A DNA stretch of 63,982 nt, counting the filler, from Basidioascus undulatus (Eukaryota), in the NCBI GenBank assembly GCA_000826855.1. It is 4 parts of 4 records of this genome, joined end to end, with 100 filler letters (N's around TTAATTAATTAA, not from the genome) between each part and the next. Parts side by side here need not be neighbours in the genome. Positions count along the whole stretch, not along the records: positions 49,684 to 63,982 come from JTLS01000743.1; 3 more parts are not named here. One strand, written 5' to 3'. Numbering within the stretch: the first letter of the stretch is position 1; every line of letters begins with the position of its first letter. The position numbers and the translations under genes are program-made. Positions 7,501 to 63,982 of the stretch are shown in pieces. The notes beneath the pieces were generated by a model. It was given only the letters and a program-made list of their open reading frames with translations. It had not been told where the DNA came from and did no database searches.

Positions 7501-10500
7501 TCGTCCGCGATGCGGGGGCTTTCTTCACGTTCTACATCGTACGCCGTCTTTCTATTGGGAAGTTTGAAGGATGCGAAGTTGATCTATGCTACACAGCTCA
7601 TCTTCATGACTCTCCTCGCAATGACTGCGTTCTTCCGTATGATCGGCACGGTATGCGTTAGCTACGACGTTGCAGCCCGTCTTGCGTCCTTGATCGTCAC
7701 TGCCATGGTTCTTTGTATGTCTATCAGCTTCGAACTTGTGCCTTTTGCGTCCTGCTGACTTTACTGTGTTTTAACAGACGCCGGATACATGGTCAGCTTT
7801 CAATAGCTACTTACGCTTCGACACAAGTGATGCTGACGCTTCGGCTGATACCTACAGGTCCCCGTCTTCGCTATGAAGCGCTGGCTGTTCTGGATCTAGT
7901 GCGTATTTTGTCTGATAAAAAAAACATGGCTGGGCGACTGCTGAAATGCTTGATCTTGACAGCTACCTCAACCCGCTCAACTACGGCTTCAGCGCGCTCA
8001 TGAGCAACGAGTTCAAGCGCCTGAACCTCCTTTGCGACCCGATTTACCAGGTTCCCGCCGGACCGGGGTACCCAACCACGCTCGGCCCCAACCAGGTCTG
8101 CACGCTCACCGGTGCGCGGCCGGGTGAGCTTTACGTGAGCGGGACGGATTACATTCGGGCGGCGTTCGAGTACGAGTGCGTTCGGATTGACCTATGTGAT
8201 TACCACGAGGGGAATAACTCTAACGCTTTCGGTCCATAGCCCCAAACACCTTTGGCGCAACTTTGGAATTTTAATTGTCTTTTTTGTCGGCTTTCAGACG
8301 ATCCAGATGGTCCTCACCGAGGTCATCGCGCACGGGGCGCACGCTTCGGCGGTTACCGTCTTCAAGCCCGAGGACAAGGACACCAAGGTCCGCAACCAGC
8401 GCCTTCAGGAGCGCAAGCAGGCGTTCCGCAAAGGCGAGGCGCAACAGAACCTCGAAGGTCTGGTGAAGAGCCGGAAGCCGTTCACCTGGTCGAACCTGGT
8501 ACGTTCCTCATTCCAACACCACCTTCTAAAACTAGACCTAACTTCGTCTACTTCCAGTCCTACACTGTTCCTGTGTCCGGTGGTCAGAAGCAGCTTCTTG
8601 ACAACGTGTATGTTCATGCCGATTCGAACCCCACACTCGACCGCAACTTACAATTTCGCCCTTTCGCCCTTTTCTAGGTTCGGTTACGTCAAGCCGGGAA
8701 CGCTTACGGCCCTGATGGGTGTATGTCTTTGCACTTTTGTTCCTCAGCCTCAGAGCTCGCTCAACTTCCGCCGTTCTTGCAGGCCTCTGGCGCCGGCAAA
8801 ACCACCCTCCTCGTAGGCGCTCCTCCGTCTTGCATGAGAATTGGAAGATCCAGATCGATACTAACGTCCGAGTTCTTTCCAGGACGTTCTCGCTGACCGC
8901 AAGACTATCGGCGTGATCACTGGCGAGATTCGCATCGCGGGTCGGCCTATCGGCATTGACTTCCAGGCCGGCGCGGCGTACTGCGAGCAGTTGGACGGTG
9001 CGTCTGTCCTTCAAAAATGGCGAGAACCATCATAGACATCGTATCTCTATCTCCAGTACACGAGTGGACTTCGACTGTTCGTGAGGCGTTGCGGTTCTCT
9101 GCGTACCTTCGTGTAAGCCTCGCATTAAGATGTGAGATTGCCGAAAGAAGGCTAACCGTGCCACCCACAGCAACCGAGGGAGGTCTCCCAGGAAGAGAAG
9201 GACGACTATGTCGAGTAAGTCCGTTCTCGAGAGGTTTGGGCCTTGCTCATCATTCCTTATTTGCGTTCGCAGGGAGATAATCCAGCTGCTTGAGATGGAG
9301 GACATCGCCGACGCAATGATTGGTTTCCCTGGCTATGGGTACGTCGCAACTTGATCTATCACCTTGATCGCCCGATCCGAGCTCATATTGCACTCACTTG
9401 CCAGTCTCGGCGTCGAGGCTCGCAAGCGCCTTACAATCGGGGTTGAGCTGGCGGCCAAGCCTCAGCTCCTGCTCTTCTTGGACGAGGTCGGTCCCGCTCA
9501 GTATACGCTTTCTACGACTTGACTGATGCATTCCGGCTTTACCTGCAGCCGACGTCTGGTCTTGACGGCCAGTCTGCCTACAAGTGCGTGCGCTCGCAGT
9601 CTGCTTTCCTCGCATCTACTGACACTTCGCCGCTTCCAGCATCGTTCGCTTCCTTAAGAAGCTCGCTGCCGCTGGCCAAGCGATCCTTTGCACCATTCAC
9701 CAGCCCAAGTGAGTCGAATTCAACTTCAAATCAATTGACTTACAGACACTCATCTCTTGGGACTTGCAGCGCCCTTCTGTTCGAGCAGTTCGACCGTCTG
9801 CTTCTCCTCGAGAAGGGTGGTAAAACTGTCTACTTCGGCGACGTTGGCAAGGACTCGCACGTCCTTGTCAACTACCTGGCTAAGCACGGCGCACACTGCC
9901 CCCCCGATGCCAATCCGGCCGAGTACATGGTAAGTCTGCTTCTTCAGTCCGCTCTACACACTGCCTTGTCACTCATTAATTCTGCCGGTGCAGCTCGACG
10001 CCATCGGTGCCGGCTCGAAGAAGCGCGTCGGCCCTAAGCCGTGGTCGCAGATCTACCTCGAGTCCGAGGAGTTCGCAAAGAACAAGCGGGTGATCGAAGA
10101 GTTCAACGCGCAGGCGCTGAAGGACTTCCCCGAATTGAAGCGTGCCACGAGCATCTGTAGGTCCCGCATTCTCTCGAGCCTGTGCTTTCGGAAATTGACC
10201 TGCCATCCCTCCTTGACTACAGACAACACGCCTTTTCTCTACCAGCTCAGGATTGTTGGAAAGCGTACGTTCCTGTCATTCTGGCGGATGCCGGATTACG
10301 GCTTCACCCGTCTGTGCGTTGCCGCCCGACTACTCTCTCGCAGTCGGGGCTATCCATGACTGACGTTTTGATCACTGCGTCTTCAGATTCTCGCACATGA
10401 TCATCTCTCTCCTGACGTCCCTCACTTTCTTGATGCTCGGAAACTGTGCGTAGCTTTATTCTCTGGCGAGGCAGGTTCAAAGATTGACCTTTCACTTCAC

Positions 10501-16475: not shown

Positions 16476-16575
16476 NNNNNNNNNNNNNNNNNNNNNNNNN
16501 NNNNNNNNNNNNNNNNNNNTTAATTAATTAANNNNNNNNNNNNNNNNNNNNNNNNNNNNNNNNNNNNNNNNNNNN
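16476..16575. other. Assembly gap with TTAATTAATTAA linker
   Basis: N run, six-frame-stop linker, N run; 100 nt in total. Confidence 0.98.
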
Positions 16576-19195
16576 CCCCGCTCCCCCACACTTCCCACAA
16601 ACCTATCTCTCCCGCCTCCCCGGCGCGAACGGCGCGCTCTTCGCGCTCTCAGAGGCGCACCACCCGCTCGTACAGTTCGCGCCTGAGGCGTTGCGCTTAG
16701 GCGACGACGGCCTCGAGGGGCGGTGGACAGTCGAGGGCGAGCCGACTGTCCTTCCTGTTGGATTCGAGCCGCCGGGAGTGTTCCTAAGTATTGATGGGCC
16801 TCCTGCGGGCCGCGCTGGCTTGCTCGATCCCCCGAGTAGGGCGGACAGGGTCGCGCAGGCTTTGGGGAGGCTCGAGGAGGACCTGGCGCTCGGGCAGGGG
16901 AACCTCAAGTGGCTCGCGCTGGGCTCACTCCTCCTCGTCGTGATCGCGCTCGTTCGGGACAGGCGACGTCTTTCTCTCTCTTCCTCGTCCTCATCATCCT
17001 CCGCCTCCACCCTCTCCTCCGAAAAGCAACCCGCCGACTCTTCCACCCCGCCTGTCCGCTCGCACGACACCGAAGCGCTGGCCTCCTCGCATACGAACCG
17101 GCACGGGCTTCCCACCCCGCCGCCCGAGATGGACAAGAAGCCGCTCCCGCCGCCGCCGCCGGGCGAGGACGCCGAGAGCGCAGACGAGGTTGGTGGTGGA
17201 ACGCCGGGGAAGAAGAAGCGCGTGCGGCGGAAGCGCGGGAAGGGCGGGAAGGGCAGGGCGGAGGAGGCGAATGGGAATGGGCAGGGGAATGGGAAGGCGG
17301 CGCGCGAGGACGATTCAGCCTCGGCCGGCGCAGTTAAGCAGCTGGACGCCAAAGCGGACCCCCCGCCGATCGCGGCTCTCCCGGTCGAGGCGCTGGTCCT
17401 CTCGGAGGACATCATCGGTGCGTAGCGTCCCGACTCTATCTTCTCTAACCTCGCTAACTGGGCGCGCACGTGAACAGGCTACGGCTCACACGGCACGGTC
17501 GTCTTCAAAGGCTCGCTCCAGGGCCGCGCAGTCGCGGTCAAGCGCCTCCTGCTCGACTTTACCAAGATTGCGCGGCACGAGGTGGACGTCCTGCGCGATG
17601 CGGACGAGCATCCGAACGTCGTTAGGTGCGTCAAGCGGGCTGTGCGTCTGCGCATGAATCAGAGCTGACTTGTGGGCTTACGTCCAGGTACTTCCTTCAC
17701 GAGCAGCGCGCCAACTTCTTGTACATCGCGCTCGAACTCGTGCGCCTTCCTGGTTTCCCGTCATCGCGAGAGAAAGGCTGATGAGATTCGTCGTTCGTTG
17801 CGCAGTGCGCCGCCTCCCTAGCAGACATCATCGAGCGGCCCGCGCAGCACCGCGAGCTAGTGTGCGCGTTCTCGCCGAAGTCCGCCCTGCGCCAGATTGC
17901 CTCGGGCGTGCGACACCTGCACGCTTTGCATCTCGTGCACCGGGACCTCAAACCAGCGAACATCCTCGTCGCGCACCCGCGACGGGGCAGCGGGGGCGGG
18001 GACGACACCATCCGCCTCGTCATCTCCGACATGGGCCTGTGCAAGAAGCTCGAGGCGGACCAGAGCAGCTTCGCGCCAACTGCGGTTGGCGCGGTCGGGA
18101 CGAGCGGGTGGAGGGCGCCGGAGGTACTGAGGGGCGATGTGCGGATCGACCAGATCCCGGAGGAGGGCGAGGAGGGCGCCGGGGAGAGCTCGACGGCGGG
18201 GGAGGGCGATGCCGCTCCCGAAGGGAAGAAGGACTCGAGTAGAAGACTGGCGAGGTCGCTTGATATCTTTGCGCTTGGTGTGATCTTTTACTATGTTTTG
18301 ACGAACGGTGCGTTTTTTTGCTCTGTGTTAAATTCGCGCGGGACGGGTGGCTGACAGCGTTGCGGGCGGGCGGGCGGCAGGCGTCCACTGCTTCGGGGAA
18401 CGCTACGAGCGCGAGATGAATATCATCCGCGGCGAGGCGAACTTTGACTTGCTGGACGTGACAAACGAGGAGGGCGCCGAGGCGCTCGACCTGATCAGGG
18501 CGATGCTCTCTCCCGAGCCGCGATCACGGTGCGTCCCAGTCCCCAGCAACCTACCTCTTTTCCTATACACTCACCACGCTGCTGACTTTTTACTCTTCAC
18601 AAACAGGCCCACGGCCTCCACAATCCTCATCCACCCGTACTGGTGGTCGCCCGCGCGCCGGCTCGCCTTCCTCCAGGACGCTTCGGACCGCTTCGAAATC
18701 ATGGATCCGAGCGCGCCGACGCTCCTCGCGCTCGAGAGCGGCGCGAACGAGATCGTCGGGCCCGACTGGCACCGCCGCTTGGACCGCGTCTTCATCGAGA
18801 ACCTCGGCAAGTTCAGAAAGTACGATGGCAGGAGCTGCAGGGACTTGCTGCGCGCGCTGAGGAACAAGGTGCGTTTGCATCGCATTTAACACAAGCTGCG
18901 TTGGGCTCGAGAACTGAACGAGGATTGCGCGCGCGCAGAAACATCACTACCAAGACCTGCCGGACAACGTCAAGCGACATCTGGGGCCGCTGCCGGACGG
19001 GTTCCTGGCCTACTTGTGCGTATTGGACCTGGCGTGTTTCTTACCCCACCAAACTGCTCACCGCATCATCTGTACCTGCGCAGCACCCGCCGTTTCCCCA
19101 ATCTCCTCTTGTGGACGCACCACGTCGTCTCGACCACCATCCTCCGGAACGAACCATTGTTTGCTTCCTACTTCTCGGACGATCCGTTCTCGTGA
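16576..19195 (+). CDS. IRE1: Ire1 ER-stress sensor kinase/endoribonuclease (5'-partial)
   Basis: TM segment WLALGSLLLVVIALV, basic KKKRVRRKRGK, kinase GYGSHGTVVFKG/VAVKRLL/HPNVVRY/HRDLKPANIL/GTSGWRAPE/DIFALG, KEN RNase domain FLQDASDRFE...KFRKYDG...DLLRALRNKKHHY...TRRFPNLL; stop TGA at 19193-19195. Confidence 0.96.
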
Positions 19196-25268: not shown

Positions 25269-28200
25269 TTAGCGGCTCGACTTCTTGCGCGTCAGCCCGC
25301 CGCCGGGCAGATTGGTCGCACGGAGATCCGCGAGCGGGGCGCGCTTGACGGGATGGTGCGCGGCGAGCTTAGAGGCGGCGAGGACCGGCGCAGGACGAGC
25401 GTGGAGCTGCGGACTAGGCGCCGCGCTGTCGCCTGCGTTGGAGGAGCATGCTGAAGCCGACGACGGGCTCGAGCTGTACGGCGGTGCTGGCTCTTCGATG
25501 CTCGCCAGCTCTGGCGGTGCCGAGAACTGCCTCGGCCTCCCCTCGTCCGCGTCGAGCCCCGCACCCTCGCCGTCGTCCTCCGCGCCCATGCTCTCGATCA
25601 TGGCGCGCGCGTCGCCCAGACTCGCCGGTCGTGCCGCGCCGGCAGTGTGGCGATTCCGCCGGTGGGCAGCAAGAAGCTCCTCGCGCGGGCCGGTAAGCTT
25701 CCACTCGTCCGACGTGTGGACGCGCTTGCGAGGCGTCTCGCCGGTCGGGACGTCTTCGCGGATGCGCTTGTGGAGGAGTATGTGTGTGGAGGAGCGGAGA
25801 TCGGACACTTGCGAGAGAGTGGCTTGGTGATGCTCAGCCGCTGCGACGGCATGCGCGGAGGACTGGAAAGGGGCGCTGCATGTGAGAAAAGGTCCTTCCG
25901 CCGCAGTCGTGTGAGAGCAAGGGGACGCACGAGGTTGATAGATTGGTTGGAATGAGACGTAATCGCGTCTTGAGTGCCAGCGTACTGCTGCTTGGCGTAG
26001 CGGGATGATTCCCGAGCCGACGAGACGATGTTGTCGAGGGACGCCCGCTGCTCCGTTTGCGAGTCATCGGCAGTTCGTTGAGCTGCAATGAGCCGAGAAG
26101 TCAGCGTCCATCGGAATAGTCAACAGTCAGATAAAGCGCACCGTCCTGGCAAGCATCATCGACTTGCGCTAACCGGGTGTCCATATCGGACATGAGAGCA
26201 TCGGTGGAGGTGGTCAAGTCCGTCTGGAAGTTGCGTAATTGTGCGCTAGCGTGGTCGGACACCTCCAAGAGCAGCTGCGTGCAGAATCGTCAACAACCGT
26301 TCACGCGATATCGCTGAGAGTCGTGGATTGTGCAGCTCACAGGCGAAGTGTCCCCCCACGTCCGGAGCGCCTCCTTCGAGTCGTGCAGCCGCTTGTCCAT
26401 CTCGCCACACGCCGCCTCGGCCGCGACCAGCTTCTCTTCATGTGCGCTCCGGAACGCCTCTGTGCGATTCAAGCCCTCGTCGTTGCGCTGGCGGACGAAG
26501 CCGACTGCCTCCGACAGGCTCCGATGCCGCGCGTCGTCGAAGTCGGTCAGGAGCGTGGTGATGTTTGAGACGAGGTCGGTCCGAAGCTTGGTAGACTTCG
26601 CGCGCTCAGCTTCAAGGAGCGAAGCGAGCTGGTCGTTTTGGGCGCGAAGGCGAACATTCTGTGAAAGAGAAGGATATGAGATCAGCCAGGACTGTCAAAC
26701 GGGAAGACAGCGCGGCATCGAGAAGGTGTGAACTTACCTCGGCCGCAGTAGCATCTTGTGTAAGCTGCCTAGTCGCGGCGAGAGCGACTCGCTCGAGCTG
26801 AAGCTGGCGCTGAGTCTCGACCGTCGCGTTGACGGCCGCGTTCGTTGATTGCTCGAGCGTGTCCCGGACCTGAACTCGCAAAGCTGTCAATCGCAGTATC
26901 TCGGACGAAAAACAAAGAGGTGCAACTCACCTCGCGAACGTGCCGATCAACGTGCTCTACGACCCGCTCCACCATACTCTCGGCCTCCCCACGAAGCGCG
27001 TCCATGCGCTCGCGCAGGCCGTCAGCGAGTTCCGCGCGAGCTCTTCGCACGAGGTCGACGAAGGCGCGAGCTTGATTCGCAGACGCGTCGTGCTGAGTAT
27101 GAAGCGCATTCGCGAGTTCGACAAGTTGCGCGAGCGAGGCATCGATGCTGGCGGAGCCGTAGGAAAGACTCTGCAGGGAGGGCGTGAGCAAACGGCTCTC
27201 GAAGCAGACCACAAACAAAGGGAAATAGCCGCACTTGAACTTGTGCATCAGCGAATTGCCGACACTCTTGCTGGAGAGTTTCGGCGAAGGTGTCTTGCGC
27301 GGACTGGAAGTCGTTCGCGCGGGTGGAGAGGACAGACGCGAGCTGGTCGAGGCCGACGCCGAATTCTGCGACGGCTAGACGGTTCGACGTCTCGACGTCG
27401 GCCTTCCGGTCTGGATTCGACACAGTCAGGGCGGTCCGGCTCCGTCATGATCAAATTGAAAGACGAACCGATCTTCGCAAAGAGGCCGTTATTGTCGTCC
27501 CGGAGGCCGGTCGCCTTCGCGTAGAACTTGCCCTCGCCCGTCGCATGAGCCTGGCTGACGATCTTCTCCTCCTCGAGCTCCCTTTCCCTCTGCTCGAGCT
27601 CGTCGTGAGTCTGGCGCAGCACGTCTTCGCAGCCCTTAAGCTGGTCGCACATGGCGCGGATCTCGCTCTCCTTGATCGTGAGGAGCTGCGAGGATTTTTC
27701 GAACTGCTCGCGGACGCCGCGGAGCTCGAGCTCGGCCAGGTCGGCGGTGCGCTTCATCTCGTCGAGCTGGACCTTGCGTTGATGCTGCTCCTGCGACAAG
27801 TCGGCCCATGACTCGGACGAGAGGTAGATGCCATTCTTCTCGCGCGTAGCCTGAGATAAGCGCCAACCGTAAGCAGATGCGACAGAAGGAGCTGATATCA
27901 TTGAGGGCGACACGCACTGAGAGGTCGGCTTTAAGACGTTCGATCTCGGCGTTGTACTCCTGGAGGAGCGCATGCTTGGTCATGCGCTGGTTGATGTGCG
28001 GCTTGTTCTCGATTGACTTTGCGCGGAGCGCGTAGTCGAGGGTCGAAAGCGTCTCCTCGAGGTTGGCCTTGACGGGCGAGATGGTCGCGATGATGCAAGT
28101 TTTGGTCGATCCGCCGAGCGAGTCTTGCAGAAGACGAGTGAGCTTGGAGTCGCTGATTGGGGGTGAACGGGAAATGTCAGTTGAAGCGGAAGAGGGCTCG

Positions 28201-29709
28201 AAGAAGAGCGAGTCCGGCGCACCGGTACGGGATGCGGTCCTTCTGGTCGCCCTTGGCCTTCTTCTCGGTCTTGTCGACCAGCGCGCTGATGACACGGCCG
28301 AGGCTGAGGAGACTCTTGTTGATCATGCCCGCCTCCCGCGCCCGCTCGTCCACCGCGCCCGAACGGCTGACGTTCTCGGACCCGGCGAGATCGACGAGGT
28401 TGAGCTTGCCGGTCTTGATCAGGTCCTCGCCCTTGGACGACGTCTCCTTGACGTGGACGGTGATGGAGAAGATCGAATGCGAGCGACTGAAGGAGGACAT
28501 AGGCGAGTTAGCATCACAGCACATTGAAGCAGGCGATGGGGAGGTTGGAGACGTACGACGAGTGGTCGTTCATCTTGGTGGCCGCCATCTGCCGACGGTC
28601 CGAGCCCTTCCTCAACAGGTCGATCGCCGCAGACGCGTCCCGAACGACCGCCTCCTCGAGACCCTGGATGGAGCAGCCCTTTCTGTTGTCGTAGATCCGG
28701 AGGCCCTCGGGACGGCCGCCAGACGCGGCGCCGTGGCCCATCGGCTGCGTCCAGGTGATAGGGGGCGTGTAGTCGGAAGAGAGAAGGTCGCGCAGCTCCT
28801 CGTTGTAGAGCTCGACGAATGAGACGCGGACGCTGAACTCGGTGCCCTCGGCCGCGAGCTTGCGGAAGATGGCCTCGAGGGCGCGAGGGATAATGCCGGC
28901 GTGGGTCGAGAGACCGCCGAGAGGTTGGCGCTCGAGGTCGCCGGCCATGGTGTACCTGTCCCAGCCAGATCCCTGTTCAGACCACCTCTCACCCATGAAT
29001 GAATCCACGTCACGCGACGCACGTTTTGCCCGTTCCCGTCTGTCCATACGCAAAGATGGTGCAGTTGTAGCCGCGCAGAGTCTCGTCGACGAACGAGTCG
29101 ACGACCTCGTCATAAACGAAGGACTGGTCGATCTCAGGCCCGAGGACGCGGTCGTACGCGTACGTTCTGCTGATGAGCTGAGGGGCGATGCCGAGGGTGA
29201 GGGCGGAAGAGGGACCGGCGGCGGAAGAGAGTGAGACGGGGCAGGTCTCGACGGAGAGTTCTTGTTTGACAGCCTTGCCGTCGGCGTCCCCTCCGTTGGC
29301 AGCGCCGATGGTGACTACGAGGGGCGATGCGCCTCGGATCTCCTGCTCTGAACGGCCGCTGAAAGCGAGCAGGGTTTGATGAGCCGGCGAACAGACATCG
29401 ATGAAAAGAGAAGCAGGCTCACCGACACCGGACGACAACCTGAATGTTCCCGCCAGCCCCATTCTCCCCCGTCCCCCTCGTCTCCTTGGTCGCCGCCGCT
29501 GGAGCTGGCCTGGTCCTCGCTCCTGCGGCAAGCCTCGAAGTGGTAGAGTCGCGGCCCTGCGCAGAGGATGCGGCTGTTTCGGACTGGCCGCCGCGGGGGA
29601 TGCGAGAAGAAGACGGGGGGTTTCGAGAGGAGGCGGAGAGGGGAGGACGAGAGGATGTGGATGAAGAGGAGGCCGCTGCCGCAGGAGCGCGGCGGGTCGG
29701 GGCGGCCAT
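25269..29709 (-). CDS. bimC: Kinesin-5 (BimC/Cin8/Eg5 family) mitotic motor
   Basis: [26 protein letters not shown] (P-loop), [62 protein letters not shown], coiled-coil stalk, BimC box PTGETPRKR and D-box-like [11 protein letters not shown] at the C-terminus. Confidence 0.95.
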
Positions 29710-30353
29710 GAGCGAGCGCGTCGGGAAGCCGGACTCGGGCGTCTGCGCGAATTAGACGGCGAGGTTTCGCTGAGGGTTCACGGCGGTGGCCTAGGCCGCG
29801 GCGTACTGGATGATTCGAGTAAAGGCGGAGGGGCGCGGGCAAGGGCGCGGTGGACGAGAGAGGGAGAACGCGAGAGAGAGCGAGCGTGAGATGACAGGGT
29901 GTTGATTGATAGACGCGGTCGCGACTTGGCAGAAATCAGCTGCACGTGACCATTCGCAGCGCTGTCGCTGCCTGTGTAGGTCTGCCTGTGTTGGTCTGTG
30001 TGCACGCAAACAACAGCTGGAAACTACCAATACTTGAAAATAGATAGAAATCTGGCTAATTGTTGTACATCAACTTGAGCGGTGATAGCGTCGTGGGAAG
30101 ACGATTTTTGTCCCCCAGTGCAATAGTGGCACTCCGGTGCAGCTTGGGTCATGCAAAACGTATCCTTTCCTCTAACCGCCTATGTCAATCATTACACGAA
30201 ACACACTTTAATGTGAAGAACGAAACATCTGATCGACGCGCAGTGATATTTGCGCCTCAACGGCATGCTATCCAAACAAATCATGCTCACTCGTGCCCGG
30301 GGTATCACATTGATTGCAGGTTATCAGTCCACCATTGTCTATTTTACTCCATA

Positions 30354-33034: not shown

Positions 33035-33134
33035 NNNNNNNNNNNNNNNNNNNNNNNNNNNNNNNNNNNNNNNNNNNNTTAATTAATTAANNNNNNNNNN
33101 NNNNNNNNNNNNNNNNNNNNNNNNNNNNNNNNNN
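33035..33134. other. Assembly gap with TTAATTAATTAA linker
   Basis: 100-nt N/linker block preceded by a poly-C run. Confidence 0.98.
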
Positions 33135-34188
33135 TGATTGGTGGCCTCGGAGTTACGGACCAGACGAGTTCGTGCGCGGGGCGATGGACATCTTCAGGTG
33201 GCATCCGCTTGCGAGCGTCAGCAAGGACGGGTACGACGCCCTCGCTGAGGCGCTCGCCCTCGTTGCGGACATCGTTGCGTTTCGGGGACCGCACATCAAC
33301 CACCTCAGGCCGCGGACGCTGGACATCGACGCTGTGCAGGGAAGCATGGCCGAGCGGGGGTGCGTTGCTTCTTTCTCTTCAAAAGTTTATTCGCGATTCC
33401 CTTGTTCATCCAACCCTACTGACGCTCTCCCTCCTCTCGGCCTGCATTGGTTCAGCATCTCCCCGAAAGAAACGATAGGCCCGCCCGTCCAGACCGTCCC
33501 CATCCTCCTACGCCAAACGTCCTTCCGCTCGCGCTCAGAACCCATCAACTTCCCCACTGCCTCCTCTTCCCCTCCCACCTCCTGCACCGCGCCGGTCACC
33601 GACAGCGTCCCCGGCTCGCACACCGCCCGCTTCGGGGAGATCGAGGCGCGCGGGTGCGCGCTCACGCGCAAGGGCAAGGCGCTGTAAGACCGTGCACAGG
33701 CCATGGGGGAGCTTTGAGGGGTTTCCGTATAACGTGCGGGTGATGTGGGAGGAAGGACTCGCATGGGTCCGGTACACCGTGCAGGAGGGCGCGAGCGAGA
33801 GACTGGAGAGACCGGCGGAAGGGAAGACGGTAGCGCGTGGAGGGCAGGTGGATCACGTTTGAGCTGGTTATTTATGAGGGCTTCCTGTGTCCGCTTTTCC
33901 CCCTTCCTCCCTCAATCTATCTCCAACGTGTTCAGTGCTCACGCCCTTTCGCCGTCTGCGACGCACCCGACAGACCCGTATCAGCAGCCTGGATTTTCCA
34001 CTCGAATATCTCTTCCTCCCCCTCGAACTAGAGCAACGCGACCCGCGCGCAGCCCAACAAATTTGCGTTTTGAGGAGGCGCTCGGGAGGGACGTGCTGGA
34101 TGAGATGGAGTTGTACGAGGCAGAGGAGCGGAGGTCGTTGAAGGCGTGCTTGGAGTTCTGGGGACTGAAGGGGGATGGCTGGGAATGA
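33135..34188 (+). pseudogene. DUF1338 / YdcJ-HglS (2-oxoadipate dioxygenase-decarboxylase) homologue, C-terminal half, disrupted
   Basis: Motifs DIFRWH, GPHINHLRPRTLDID, PILLRQTSF, HTARFGEIEARGCALT, GLAWVRY, IYEGFLPVSAA, FEEALGRDVLDEMELY; TAA at 33685-33687 where LYD is expected, plus at least two frameshifts. Confidence 0.8.
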
Positions 34189-54563: not shown

Positions 54564-55545
54564 TTGCTGGAGGTATACATATAAATATGCCCGATATTAC
54601 TCGTTCTACCAGGCGAAGCGATGAGAGCCATGACAGTGGCAGTTGTCCCTCTGAAGTTGTCCTTCTGAAGTTGCTCGATTGCCGGGTTGTAGAGTGCCGG
54701 CTGTCTGAGCTTGCATATCAAGCATCACCTGAGCATTGTCTAACTCAAACTTACTCACAGAAACGGTCCTGCTCGCAGCGTGCGAATAGGCCGTCCAACT
54801 TATCTAGTAGGCGGTGGATTCGCAGTCAAGCCAGTTCCCTTACCTTTCCTTACCTGGTTCGACCGTACCAGTTCTCGGAAACGATGTACACACAGACCAA
54901 CTACATTCGCACTGGATGCGGTTGACTGCAGTCAGAACTCAGACTGTGCATATTTGGCGCTATCTAGCAGTGTGACGAGGTGATAGGCACTCACCCGGCC
55001 GTGTCTTCTCCTCGAAACGGCCGAGACGGGGGCCGAAAGATTAAGAGGCATGGGCACATGCCGATTTGCCGCGCGGCAGTCGGGAGATCATGGTCGGGAT
55101 CCGGATGTGGAGATTATTGCGCACCGCCAGGGGAAGGTCCGGGACCAATCGATGTCCAACAGAGGGCATAAAACACAAACTCTCTCCTCGAGCTTGAAAG
55201 TTTGAAGTACGGTCGGTTGGACACAAGGTCGTGAGGACTTCCTTGACCACAAACCGCACCTGCATGCTCTCCATTGACTGCGGTTGTCCATAGCTTGTTT
55301 CCCTCGAATTTGAGTGTTCGACATCGGGCGCCGGAGTGTGCCGAAGCCATTCACGGCACTGTAGCGGCGTTGGTTGGCCACCATTGCTGCCAGTCATCCC
55401 GCATGCCTCATCATCCCAATTTAAGCATCTCGTGCGGGGTTATCGACGATTTTGAGATGGACGGCTGCAGCTCCTAAGCTCTCGGCCACCATCATCTTTC
55501 CCTGGTGTAACATCCTCCCCGCTTCGCCCACTTCCCACAGTTCAC

Positions 55546-58500
55546 ATGGCGGCGCATACCCACGACGAGAAGCATCCGAACTCGCCGCCGCGCTCGACCA
55601 GGAGCTCGTCCGAACCGACCATGGTGGGATACGCTCCCCCGCCGGGCGCGATGGAGGAGGGGAAGGTTGCGTTTGTGCCGTATAGGGGAGAGGGAACGGC
55701 GGAGAACCCTTACATCGTGGATTGGTTGGAGGGCGAGCGGGATAACCCTCAAGGTGCGTTCCGAAACGCGCAGCTTTCCGCGATAAGGCAACGCTGAACG
55801 TGACGTGTCGCTGTGTCTTTCTAGCTTGGGGGAAGGTACGCAAATGACAAGGTATTATTATAGAGCTCATGCTGAACCGGCTCTGGTTGTAGACTCGCAA
55901 ATGGTCAATCACTCTTGCAAACGCTATAGCGACGTTGTGCGTTGCTTTCGCGTCAAGCGCGTACAGTGGCGGTGCTGCAGCCATGGTCAGGTACTTCGAG
56001 GTCAAGCAAATCAGTGCGTTCCTGTCCTGAGAATTTAGCGTTGGCGAACCGGACGCTGAACGATCGCCTCCCTGTCGCGGTGGACAGTCATTGTCGCCGG
56101 AATCACAGTCTTTGTGCTGGGATTCGCACTGGGACGTGAGTACTCCGTTCCACCATCCGTTCGCCCTGATTTCTGACTTGGGGGATACTCTTGCAGCGTT
56201 GCGTGCGTGCTATGCTGATTGCTGTCGCGACCACCCGGCACTTTACTGACATGTTTGCGCATCAGTTTGGGCGCCACTGTCGGAGATGTGTTCGTCGTCA
56301 TTTGCGAATCACGAGCATGTCGAAGCGACTGACTGGTGGCTGCAGATGGGCGGAGAAGAATCTTCATCGTCAGCTACGGCCCGTTCGGTGCGTCTCTGGC
56401 TGGATCTGGGTACTGTTCTTGCAAGCATCTGACAGCGCCTCGCCAGCCATTTTCAACATCGGATGTGCTCTGGCACGCAACATCGGTCAGCGGTCGCGTC
56501 TACCCTTTTAACAGGGCGCCATTTTGACGCACGTGTGCTTTCCAGAGACCTTGCTCGTCTGTCGCTTCTTCGCCGGCTCATTCGGCTCGAGTGTACTCGT
56601 TAACGCAGGAGGCGTTCTGGCCGACAGTAAGGCGGACTGGGTCGTTGTGCGTTTGGCGCCAAGCTGAGTGGTCTTTTGTCCAGTGTTCCCCCCTCAAGAG
56701 CGCGGCATCGCGACCGTCTTCTTCGCGCTGGCTCCTTTCATGGTAAGAACAATCTGCATTGTCCCTCCGAGCTGGTGCTGATAATATCGTCTTTTCTGTG
56801 CACAGGGCAAGTCAGCAGGTCTTTGCACCCATGAACCATGCTAATCTTTCTCTTGCTCGGCACCGCTCAGGTCCCGTTCTCGGTACGCCGTCCGCAACCT
56901 GCTGAAAATTTGAACGCGGTTCTCACACACGCAGTTGCTTTCTAGGACCGATCTGTGGTGGCGTGCGTCTCGCATAAACCCGAATAAGTTGAAATTCGTG
57001 CTGACGGGCCCGGCTTCCACAGTTCCTATCGTACGCGTCCTGGCGTGACATCTGTATGTCTGGGCGCCTATCCCGGGAGGGGTACATCGTCGCTGAACAC
57101 CCCATCCACTGCAGTCTGGCTGCTCTTTGCCTTTGCCGGGGCGATGTTCATCATTACTTTAGTTCGTCTCCGAAACCGCCTACTGCGCTGCGCGGGCGCG
57201 GTGCTCATGCCCTCGACTTCGTCCGGCAGGTCATCATGGACAAGGAGACGTACGCGCCCGTCCTTCTCCGCCGCAAGGCAAAGAAGCTCTCGAAGGAGAC
57301 AGGCAAGCACTACGTTGGCAAGTACGATGAGGGCCTTGTCTTGAAGAAGAGCGAGATCTTCAAGGTCAACTTGACCCGGCCATGTTCGTCACACGTCTTT
57401 CCCATGCACCGCTCAAGCAGAGTCTGACGCTCCATTTGCGGCCACAGTTGTCCTGCTCTTCCTTGAGCCTATTGTACGCTGTGACCACAGCGCTCCTCAT
57501 TCGGCATGCACGGTGTCTCATCTCCACATCTGCAGGTCCTGTTGATCTCGATCTGGCTCGCCATCGTCTACGCGAGTTCTTCCTGCCTCACCGCCTCCAT
57601 TGCGACTAGCACTGACCTGGACTCGACCTCACAGGGCACGCTGTATCTGTAAGACCAGAGCAGCCGTAAAGACGGACCTCAAGCCACCAAGCTGACTTAA
57701 TATGCCTTCACTCGTGCAGCTGCTTCGCAGCGTTCCCGATCGGTATGTCGCAGAGTACCTCTCAACGTCACGACTAGAGCTAACTAGCGTCGACATTCTT
57801 CTTCCACCCCAGTCTTCCAGTGGGCTTCTTCGACATTGCGACTCTGGAAGCTAAGCAGCTCACCTGGCGTGTCATCAGGCAGGAGGAGCGCGGCTGGGGT
57901 CCAGGTGTCGGAGGGCTCGCCTTCATTGGGATGGGCATTGGCATGGTCCTCGGCGCCTTCCTGGCACCCATGACGAACCGGGTGCGTCTCGCTCTGCGTA
58001 GATGCGGCCTTTCGCCGTACTGATCCGATTGACCTACTCGGTTGTCGCGAACAGATGTACGTCAAGGCGTGCGAGAAGTCGCCGACTGGTCGCGCACCGC
58101 CCGAGGCCCGCCTGCCGATGGTCTGTATCGCCGGCGTGCTCCTTCCCATCGGTCTCTTCTGGTTGTGCGTAATCTCTCGATGCCTGCAACTCCAAGAGCA
58201 AGAACTGATCTGCTTTTGCAGTGCATGGACGACCTTCCCATCGGTGCACTGTATGTGGTAGTCAGGCTTCATGCGACGATGTCCAGTTCAGCGCTGACAT
58301 CCTCGCTGCAGGGATCGTCCCCATCATTGCCACAGTTCCCTTCGGCATGGGCATGCTCATACTCTTCACCGGTTCGATTAAGCGAGCTTGGCCCACTCTC
58401 TATTTGCTCCTCTCGCGCCGCTGATCGTGCCTCTGGAACAGCTACCTCATCGACGCCTACCTGCTGTACGCCGCCAGTGCCCTCGCCGCAAACTCGGTTC

Positions 58501-58952
58501 TGCGCAGTCTTTTCGGCGCCGTGTTCCCCCTATTCACTTCCGACGTGGGTTTGCCAGCCTCTCTTTTCAGTCGTGGCTGCCGCTCACCTGTTCGTTTCAA
58601 CGCAGATGTACCACAACTTGGGCACGCAATGGGCTAGCTCCATTCCCGCGTTCCTGGCTCTTGCATGCGTTGTAAGTGTCGCGACACCAACCACTAGGGA
58701 TCCCCACGCTTACCTGGGACAAACGAAGCCCATTCCTTTCGCCTTCTACAAGTGGGGCGCGAAGATTCGCGCAAAGGTACGTTTCGCAGTTTGTCCACAG
58801 ATTCTCGTGATGGACATCCCTAGTCGTTTCCCTCCCGTCCGCAGAGCCGCTACGCACCCAAGCTCCCCCTCGCCCCTCTGCCCCCGCAGGAGGCGGAGCC
58901 AGAGCCAGAGCTGGCGGAGCAGATGAAGGTCGAGCCGGAGGAGAGGGCATGA
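55546..58952 (+). CDS. MFS drug:H+ antiporter (DHA1 family), highly fragmented by introns
   Basis: [54 protein letters not shown]...[68 protein letters not shown]. Confidence 0.94.
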
Positions 58953-59739
58953 GCTTTTACTCTACAGGAACACTTGGCTTTCTGTTTGACTCACATTTTA
59001 CACGGGCGCTTTTCTTCATTGGACCTCATTCTTCTAATTCGCGTCTGGCCCTGCCGACCTTTATCGTTGGACGAGGGCTGGCCTTCGTCCCGGAGGAAAT
59101 GCCTCTAGCATCTTCGCATTTGCGCGCTGTGTTATTGCGCCATACCCAATAGACAGCGTTCGCTATATCATGCATGATATTACTAACATATCTAAAATTA
59201 GCTCTGCCCAGTGCTGCTCGTCTATGGTCGTTAGACGGGAACGGATTCAGCAGTGGCGACACTCTTTCTTGAACGGTGTCGGCGATTTCGCTTTTCTTGC
59301 CTCCTACACGATGTAGACCGGAGTCAGTGTAAGCCAGTGCATGAACGCACTATCTCATCTGATAGCCATAATCGTCTACCCCCCTGCCCCAAGTCAAGAT
59401 CAGACATCCACATCGCCCAGTGCGCTGTCGTACTACCGCGGCTTCACGTCCCTGTATACCGCACCGATTGTCTGGAAACCGTTGGAACTCAACATTCTTC
59501 CTGATGCGCCAAAACGTTGGTAAGTCTGGATTTTAGATCCGCAAAAAGCAATCACTCTCGTCCACGCAATCTGCCATACAGCTTTCCGTCCGCAACGTTC
59601 CTCTCAGCCGTCCCCCGAGCGTGGACGCTGACCAGATCACGTCCGCTCTCATTGCCTGCATAGTTATCTTACCATCTATTTCTTCCCTCTCACAAATCCC
59701 CAAAAATAATCTTCCAGCACCCTACTACTCTCCACCGAA

Positions 59740-61915: not shown

Positions 61916-63055
61916 CTATCGAGCCCATCCGACGCCCCCACTCGTGTCCCCGTCCGCCACCCTCCCGCCCTCGGCCTTCTCCGCCGGCGCGTCCTCGACG
62001 AACCCAAACTGCCCGCGGTTCCAGTGCTTCTGCGTGCGCTTGTTGCCCGCGCCCTCGCCGTAGAGCTTCGCCCACTTGCGGAGGTCCGGGAGGGTGCCCA
62101 TGTCCTACAGGACAGGAAGGGTTGGGCATGTGAGCAGGACAGGTGATGGGGAAGGGGAGAGAGAACGCACCTCGGACGTCGACGGAGACACCTCCTTGAG
62201 CGCGCGCTCAAAGTGCGACATGGCGAGGACACGCTGCGGGGCGGGCGGCTTGCTAGTGCTCTCGGCGCTTGTGCTCTCCTGTGCAGGAGCAGCCCCGGCC
62301 TCTGGAGCGGCGGGAGCAGGCGCCTCGTCTGCGAACGGCGCAGGACCGACCTCCACTGCCTCGGCGGCAGGCGCAGGCGCAGGCTTCTCCGCCTCCGCCT
62401 TCGTCTCCGTCTTCTTCTTGAGCCACGGCACGTCGACGTTCTCCTTGAGCGCGATGAGCGCTGCAGAGACACATAGCTCTGCCGCCCCACCCGCATCACC
62501 CAAATAAGCCTAGGTCCGACACCGCCTCGAGAAAGAGGGGAAGGAACGCACGCTTAAGGTCCGAGCCCGAGAAGTACTCGGTGCGCTTGGCCAACCCCGC
62601 AAGGTCCACGTCTGGCGCGAGGTGCTCGTCCCGCAGGTGGATCTCGAGGATCCTTTGCCGGTCCTCCTCGCGCGGGAGGTCGACCAGGAGGCGCCGGGGG
62701 AGACGGCGGAGAAGGGCGTCGCTACCACGAGCCACCAACGCCCCATGTCAGTTGTTACCAGCCCAGCAGTGGAAGAGCGAGGACGGGGGCAGGAAGAACG
62801 CACTCGAGGTCAAACGGCCGGTTCGTCGCGCCGATCATGACGATCCCGCCGCGCTCGCGGTTGTCCGACGGGCTGTTCAGCCCGTCCAGGAGCTGGAGCA
62901 TCTCGGTCACCTGTGGTACCCACGCCATCCTTCATCAGCTCCTACTCCCATTGCTTCCCGCCGGAGAAAGAGAGAGCGGGAGGACCGACACACCATCTTC
63001 CGATGCGCCTGATTCGAGCTGTCTGACCGCCCGGACGAGCGGCCCGAGACGAGCC

Positions 63056-63086
<31 letters not shown>

Positions 63087-63982
63087 CGCGAGGCGGCGCG
63101 CGAGCGTGAACATCGCGCGGACGAGCTTCTCGCTCTGTTCCATTCCCCATCACCATTCCCGTCAGTCCACCTGCCAACCAACGAACCAATAACCCGGAGG
63201 CGGAAAAGCCGAAAACGAGAAGGGAAAGGACGAAGGGGAGTGGGAAGAGAATGGGGGGGCCGGGGCGGGACCAGAAGGAAGAAGGTAGAACATGAAGCTG
63301 TTGAACGCACCTCGCCCAAATACATATCCAACAAATCCGACGGCTTGATCGAAATCATCCGCGCGCCGCTCTCGCGCGCGAGCGCGCGCACCACAAGCGT
63401 CTTGCCCGTCCCCGGCGGGCCGAAGAGCAGCGCGCCGGTCGTCGAATGGTTCTTGAGCACGCCTGAGGCGAATGCTTGGGGGTAGCTGGTTTGTCCCAAT
63501 GCATCAAGTCAGTTCTCGGGAACCTCGAATTCTCGTACTTGGAAGGGGGAGGGTGGGGTGAGGAGGAAGGGGGGAAGGGGAAGAGTGAAAAGGCGTACAG
63601 CAAAGGAAGGGACACGATCGACCGCAGTGCGTCCGTCGTCTGCTCCGGCAAAAACGCATCCTCAAACGTCGTCCCCACCCGCCTGGCATCCACAATAGCG
63701 CTCAACAGTCTCTGCTCATGCTGCCCCAGATCCTCAGCCGCCTTCACGCGCTCCACCACCTCATCTTTCTCTCCTTCTCCCCCGACGCCGCCCTCCGCAC
63801 CATCGACTGCGTCAAGCTCGGCCGCAGCCAAAGCAGCCGCCGTGCGCTCGCCGGTTGCATTCGCCCATGCGCGCCGCGCGGCATGCGAGGCGCGCAGGGT
63901 TGCCCAGGCGCGGGAGAGGGTGGGGAGGGTGATTGGCTGGGAGGGGGAAAGGGAGAGGGAGAGGAGGGAGAGGGAGAGGATG
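61916..63982 (-). CDS. Msp1/ATAD1-like AAA+ ATPase (long fungal form), 5' part outside the window
   Basis: [13 protein letters not shown] (Walker A), [14 protein letters not shown] (Walker B), [26 protein letters not shown] (SRH), [30 protein letters not shown]. Confidence 0.92.

Follow-up and report, generated by a model that had tools for sequence, protein, structure and literature searches.

The DNA analysed here is a stretch of 63,982 nucleotides from Basidioascus undulatus, filler included (the window). On its plus strand, positions 55546–58952 carry a DHA1-like MFS transporter gene which starts with an ATG at 55546 and ends with a TGA at 58950–58952. The gene model was built from the sequence together with the joints found in contigs of a public run, X3, and comprises 29 exons, 28 introns and 547 codons. 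For exons 3–29 the lengths of the X3 contigs correspond to the exon sums of this model; the junction between exons 1 and 2 is inferred only. The mean exon length is about 57 nt, and seven exons do not exceed 17 nt (11, 6, 1, 12, 17, 14 and 7 nt).

A Kyte-Doolittle scan of the 547-residue protein revealed 12 distinct hydrophobic segments, the fifth of which (TM5) contains GPVLGPICGG. Antiporter motif C has the form G-x3-G-P-x2-G-G, and we take the TM5 sequence to be this motif. By tblastn, residues 60–516 of the protein were aligned with the metagenomic sequence L004 at 41% identity (E 1.4e-122). L004 is nearly devoid of introns, matches Pfam MFS_1 at E 8.9e-39 and has its closest solved structures in the efflux pumps EfpA, yeast Qdr2 and EmrD. 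Judged by its sequence, the encoded protein resembles MFS drug:H+ antiporters. Pfam searches with six single exons of the gene remained blank in all six cases because these exons are too short, a homologue search with the 51 residues of exon 16 gave no match, and no paralogue of the gene was found within the window.

Between exons 10 and 13 the gene has an unusual layout. The window reads ...TTCATG (ending at 56742), GTAAGA...CACAG (ending at 56805), G (56806), GCAAGT...CTCAG (ending at 56870), GTCCCGTTCTCG and GTACGC. Exon 10 (56684–56742, 59 nt, covered by X3 record 4) ends in GCT CCT TTC ATG. It is followed by intron 10, in the gene model a GT-AG intron of 63 nt in phase 0 (56743–56805). 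A branch-like CTGAT, assigned by motif match only, occupies 56778–56782 of this intron, and its A56781 lies 24 nt before the 3' end. Exon 11 consists of one nucleotide, G56806, as given by X3 record 4 and the reading frame. This G stands directly after the acceptor AG and directly before a GC donor (CACAG/G/GCAAGT, 56801–56812). The modelled intron 11 is a GC-AG intron of 64 nt in phase 1 (56807–56870); its donor GCAAGT is near consensus with a G at -1, and a branch-like CTAAT, again a motif match, is found at 56841–56845 with A56844 26 nt before the 3' end. Exon 12 (56871–56882, 12 nt, GT CCC GTT CTC G) makes up most of the loose end of X3 record 4 and is also contained in the first part of X3 record 5. 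Downstream of it are intron 12 (56883–56945, 63 nt, GT-AG), supported by the X3 joint 56883→57023 which carries a 17-nt exon, and exon 13 (56946–56962, 17 nt, from X3 and the gene model), which finishes GPICGG. All of these features lie on the plus strand. The sequence-only reading had described a lone G between two introns, each with its own branch-like site and the downstream one of the GC-AG type. This layout agrees with the sequence to the base.

G56806 and the GT at 56871–56872 form the GGT codon of Gly214, with G56806 as the first codon base. Gly214 is the first glycine of G-x3-G-P-x2-G-G. With G56806 the frame is open over 547 codons and gives APFMGPVLGPICGG, whereas without it the frame is shifted and meets a stop at codon 248. 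The earlier claims that the exon is required by the frame and that its inclusion restores motif C are thereby borne out. When intron 11 is retained, an in-frame TAA inside CTAAT follows after 12 codons.

Transcript evidence was obtained from X3, a run of 16 million letters which stems from the same sample as the assembly X2 and whose kind is tagged 'DNA?', a guess. Over the transporter gene X3 showed 20 joints, of which 15 were listed. All 12 single-intron joints among those listed are bounded by GT..AG or GC..AG, and four double skips each hold the letters of a micro-exon in between (6, 16, 13 and 7 letters). None of the X3 joints is present in X1 or X2, two assemblies that cover the locus. 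Since the joints match introns exactly and micro-exons sit inside the double skips, X3 acts as cDNA, and we infer that it is cDNA in nature. Three stretches of the X3 contigs correspond to sums of consecutive exons: positions 156–313 of record 4 to exons 4–8, positions 269–374 of record 5 to exons 17–21 and positions 470–568 of record 6 to exons 24–25.

X3 record 4 (440 nt, depth 7.06) was found to read across the one-base exon. Its alignment covers exon 10 up to 56743, and beyond this point come 13 loose letters, GTCCCGTTCTCGG, made up of exon 12 and the first nucleotide of exon 13. Position 56626 of the window is at record position 74, the 59 nt of exon 10 occupy record positions 15–73, the extra G is at position 14 and the loose end takes up positions 1–13. 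Had the extra G been absent, the aligned part would have extended to 56744 and left 11 loose letters. The mature RNA, as represented by this one assembled contig with a depth of about 7, consists of exon 10, G and exon 12. The cDNA expected from the sequence-only reading (ATG, G, GTCCC...) was therefore read in an assembled contig.

At the beginning of X3 record 5 (depth 8.2), the terminal 7 nt of intron 11 directly precede exon 12, which in this contig has already undergone splicing to exons 13 and 14. Consequently, some RNAs lost intron 12 before intron 11. The X3 contigs showed no depth over 56744–56863, including the interior of intron 10, and neither intermediates with just one of introns 10 and 11 removed nor lariats were seen among them. 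Positions 56743, 56806 and 56870 are all G, so the mRNA sequence alone cannot tell which of the three stayed in the transcript. This choice was approached through the lengths and splice signals of the introns.

The 26 other introns of the transporter gene, with introns 10 and 11 left out, served as the reference set. They measure 56–74 nt with a mean of 62.9 nt and a standard deviation of 5.4 nt. The 63 nt of intron 10 and the 64 nt of intron 11 correspond to z values of 0.0 and 0.2, respectively, while a single intron of 127 or 128 nt would have a z value of 12. Position weight matrices (PWMs) for the splice sites were built from the same 26 introns, and leave-one-out scores were used for comparison. 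The donors of introns 10 and 11 scored 4.8 and 4.3 (mean of the gene 6.2, standard deviation 2.2, minimum 1.5). For the acceptors, scores of 7.4 and -0.2 were obtained (mean of the gene 4.5, standard deviation 2.8, minimum -5.1). Although weak, the intron 11 acceptor falls inside the range of the gene. A YTRAY motif 13–31 nt from the acceptor was found in 14 of the 26 other introns and also in introns 10 and 11. GC-AG introns account for 3 of the 28 introns. Besides intron 11 these are two contig-supported introns, one starting at 58382 (X3 joint 58381→58442, listed as GC..AG) and one starting at 57572 (GCGAGT), the latter deduced from X3 contig arithmetic.

Taken together, we consider it very probable that G56806 is a real exon of a single nucleotide within a fungal MFS transporter gene that is very rich in introns; the exon seems to be constitutive. 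The best of the other explanations, although improbable, is the removal of one non-canonical intron of 127 nt, either TA..AG (56744–56870, keeping G56743) or GT..CA (56743–56869, keeping G56870). Such an intron would yield an identical mRNA, all three candidate bases being G, and it agrees with the lack of one-intron intermediates in the X3 contigs. Its length, however, is 12 standard deviations out for this gene. The shifted sites which it requires scored -12.9 (TA..AG) and -9.6 (GT..CA) on the PWMs of the gene, and the listed single-intron joints are GT..AG or GC..AG without exception. Furthermore, the single intron would have to contain a complete internal acceptor, one base and a donor by chance. 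Taken alone, the motif YAGNGYRAGT (10 nt) is nothing rare, as the window holds 4 matches where 3.5 are expected; within its context, however, a chance origin is most improbable. We simulated 200,000 introns of 128 nt whose interior followed a first-order model of the introns of the gene. An internal AG/N/GY as good as that observed, with both halves of 56–74 nt, occurred in 24 of them, about 1 in 10,000, and in 4 when a branch-like motif was demanded as well. At the most lenient thresholds the frequencies were 1.0% and, with the branch motif, 0.2%.

A second explanation calls for no unusual splicing at all. It states that a G at the edge of an exon is missing from the assembly and that a single ordinary GT-AG intron of 128 nt is excised. 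This is very improbable, since X1 (2014) and X2 (2025), which come from different studies and samples, show no differences over 3,601 nt. Compared with the window from 55400 to 59000, both had no other letters and no gaps. One of these two assemblies may itself have supplied the window and would then not be independent of it. A missing base at a flanking exon end, named beforehand as an outcome that would overturn the one-base exon, is unlikely in view of this exact match. In addition, the 128-nt intron would again be a 12-standard-deviation outlier, and its internal splice signals would be an unlikely coincidence.

Equally doubtful is a main product with a longer in-frame micro-exon that uses the donor GTCTTT at 56819, with the one-base form as a minor species. 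Such a micro-exon would comprise 13 nt (56806–56818) or 7 nt (56812–56818), and both variants leave the frame open. However, the assembled contig has the one-base form, and 56744–56863 is without contig depth. The longer forms would insert GKSA into the motif or convert G to SAG; none of eight relatives shows an insertion at this place, and in the donor scan GTCTTT at 56819 scored less than 2. Finally, the idea that the polymerase slips, or that editing takes place, and adds the G once a single 128-nt GT-AG intron has been removed has a negligible probability. No observation speaks for it, we know of no such process in fungal nuclear mRNAs, and the arguments from intron length and internal signals against a single intron apply here too.

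If G56806 is an exon of its own, introns 10 (GT-AG) and 11 (GC-AG) would be ordinary short introns of the U2 type, each excised in its own splicing reaction with its own donor, branch-like motif and acceptor. Joined to the GT of exon 12, the leftover G would then complete the GGT codon. In fungi, recognition of short introns takes place across the intron. At this locus the AG with which intron 10 ends would lie inside the stretch from -3 to +6 that serves U1 pairing at the donor of intron 11. Because of this overlap the two introns are probably not committed together and are probably taken out one after the other. Either order of removal would leave the remaining intron with full signals, and the donor of intron 11 scored 5.1 in the context created by removal of intron 10. 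In plants, the introns upstream of micro-exons are more often delayed (PMC8831610). Skipping of the G or retention of intron 11 leads to a premature stop, so both erroneous forms are probably cleared by NMD. Ordered splicing and a regulatory NMD switch had been put forward as inferences in the sequence-only reading; the one hint in this direction is X3 record 5, from which it follows only that intron 11 can persist longer than intron 12. A regulatory role of exon 11 splicing is possible, although nothing found here supports it.

The relatives available for comparison, L001–L008, are distant metagenomic sequences with about 35–42% identity and not true orthologues. All eight have a Gly at the position of Gly214 and no inserted residues ahead of it. 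The motif G-x3-G-P-x2-G-G is kept in seven; L008 is short of two residues further on. L001 has a single intron of 88 nt (2791–2878) in phase 1 inside the matching Gly codon, which is the position of intron 11. Its next intron is two codons off that of the transporter gene; just one intron position is therefore common to both genes. This common position could be ancestral or the result of parallel gain at a G/G site. L003 and L004 have no intron at the Gly214 site; in L007 and L008 an intron lies 4 nt upstream of the position of intron 10, and in L005 and L006 one is located between GPVV and GGF.

An intron duplication or an introner-like repeat as the source of the pair is not supported, since introns 10 and 11 resemble neither each other nor other sequence of the window. 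Their alignment to each other scored 0.0 (mean of all 378 intron pairs -2.7, standard deviation 4.6). No copies of the two introns were found elsewhere in the window, where the longest exact match was 12 nt. One might propose that the one-base exon arose when an intron was gained one base upstream of the older phase 1 intron whose position is shared with L001. In the same proposal the pair now acts as a kinetic checkpoint that tunes the transporter mRNA through slow or ordered removal, the weak GC-AG member and NMD of the forms that skip the G or retain intron 11. We regard this scenario as unlikely.

Several known systems invite comparison. In stwintrons an inner intron interrupts a splice signal of an outer intron, and nothing is left in the mRNA. 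Fungal stwintrons are pairs of adjacent or nested short introns that need ordered removal, and the locus described here resembles them in its two adjacent short introns, which are probably taken out one after the other. A stwintron was nevertheless ruled out because introns 10 and 11 each have intact signals and the G is retained. At Drosophila ratchet points, recursive splicing takes place at zero-length exons within very long introns (PMC6110457, PMC13149111). The similarity is that an acceptor abuts a donor and that stepwise removal regenerates a usable site. Ratchet points, however, leave 0 nt behind, whereas one base stays here and the introns are only about 63 nt long (PMC6110457, PMC13149111). 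A recursive splice site with a zero-length exon was excluded, as one G remains in the transcript.

One-base exons themselves are on record in plants and fungi. The one-nucleotide exon (A) of Arabidopsis APC11 was proven by substitutions that reappeared in the cDNA (PMC4674806), and in plants two conserved clusters of one-nucleotide exons are reported, APC11 and VPS55 (PMC8831610). These exons are constitutive, as G56806 seems to be, and share with it that they are required by the frame and overlooked by annotation (PMC4674806, PMC8831610). They differ in that the plant exon is an A flanked by larger, unequal GT-AG introns and is conserved in land plants, while here a G is flanked by introns of 63 and 64 nt. 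In Fusarium CYP621A, AG/G/GT is found in a Gly codon within a region of 139 nt, about twice the median intron, and is backed by SRA reads (PMC12940212). Like the present exon, it is fungal, consists of a lone G after AG and before G, belongs to a Gly codon of a conserved motif, is required by the phase, has a combined intron region about twice the usual length and is supported by transcripts (PMC12940212). In contrast, its downstream intron starts with GT (AGGGT) and its G lies in the middle of the codon, whereas here a GC-AG intron follows and the G opens the codon. Moreover, CYP621A is an ascomycete P450 gene in which the exon is kept across 20 orthologues, while the exon described here belongs to an MFS gene (PMC12940212). 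A long-read annotation of Coprinopsis cinerea lists 13 one-nucleotide exons in 13 genes, and on the axis of its Fig. S2B MFS InterPro families appear among those enriched in micro-exons (PMC12230235). This fungus is likewise intron-rich with many micro-exons; the source provides a catalogue only.

The sequence-only reading had called one-nucleotide exons rarely documented. Rarity is a fair description, but the phenomenon itself is already in print (PMC4674806, PMC8831610, PMC12940212, PMC12230235). G56806 joins a known, still small, class of one-base exons. Among the literature found, with the 13 genes of Coprinopsis cinerea outside its scope, no one-base exon followed by a GC-AG intron is described. 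If the kinetic-checkpoint scenario were true, the locus would also be the first described case of this arrangement.

An exon of one base is beyond gene predictors and most read aligners. Since predictors cannot place it, the annotation would show the transporter as frameshifted or truncated, or as a pseudogene. G56806, which has transcript support, brings in a third gene family and thereby favours the recurrence of one-base exons in intron-dense fungi over their being mere curiosities. With a length of about 130 nt, the locus is also a compact natural substrate on which to ask how the spliceosome handles an overlapping acceptor and donor. Its main importance thus lies in genome annotation and in this compact splicing substrate.

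The MFS gene, a DHA1-like transporter model at 55546-58952 (+), is extremely fragmented, its 547 codons being split over 29 exons. The 1-nt exon, G56806, is accompanied by micro-exons of 11 nt (55825-55835), 6 nt (56197-56202), 12 nt, 17 nt, 14 nt (57635-57648) and 7 nt (57813-57819), all on the + strand. Those of 6, 17, 14 and 7 nt occur in transcript contigs as the letters between two removed introns, and the 12-nt micro-exon forms the loose end of record 4, a contig of X3 (a public run labelled 'DNA?' whose intron-precise joints point to cDNA). If the weak donor GTCTTT at 56819 (+) were used, the micro-exon could instead be 13 or 7 nt long within 56806-56818 and still keep the frame; neither version was backed by any contig.

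Elsewhere in the window, ORF translations judged by eye from their motifs look like a putative ABC transporter (8100-10050, +), an Ire1-like kinase/RNase (17780-18890, +), a kinesin motor (27600-29800, -) and an AAA ATPase (62940-63510, -). The exons of these putative genes are much longer than those of the MFS gene. N runs at about 16480-16580 and about 33090-33135, where the translated ORFs show stretches of X, were read as scaffold gaps.

GC donors were found on the + strand in 3 of the 28 introns of the MFS gene, starting at 56807 (GCAAGT), 57572 (GCGAGT) and 58382 (GCGAGC). The share of GC-AG introns is usually quoted as roughly 1%. The share of GC starts in this one gene is well above that value.

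L001 is a distantly related MFS homologue from a metagenome contig of 143 kb, and in it a single 88-nt intron (2791-2878) lies in phase 1 within the motif-C glycine codon matching that of the window. Its position is that of window intron 11.

At window 56864-56883 (+), record 5 of X3 starts with the final 7 nt of intron 11, while introns 12-14 are already removed. This transcript contig is an incompletely spliced RNA that retains intron 11 longer than the neighbouring introns downstream of it.
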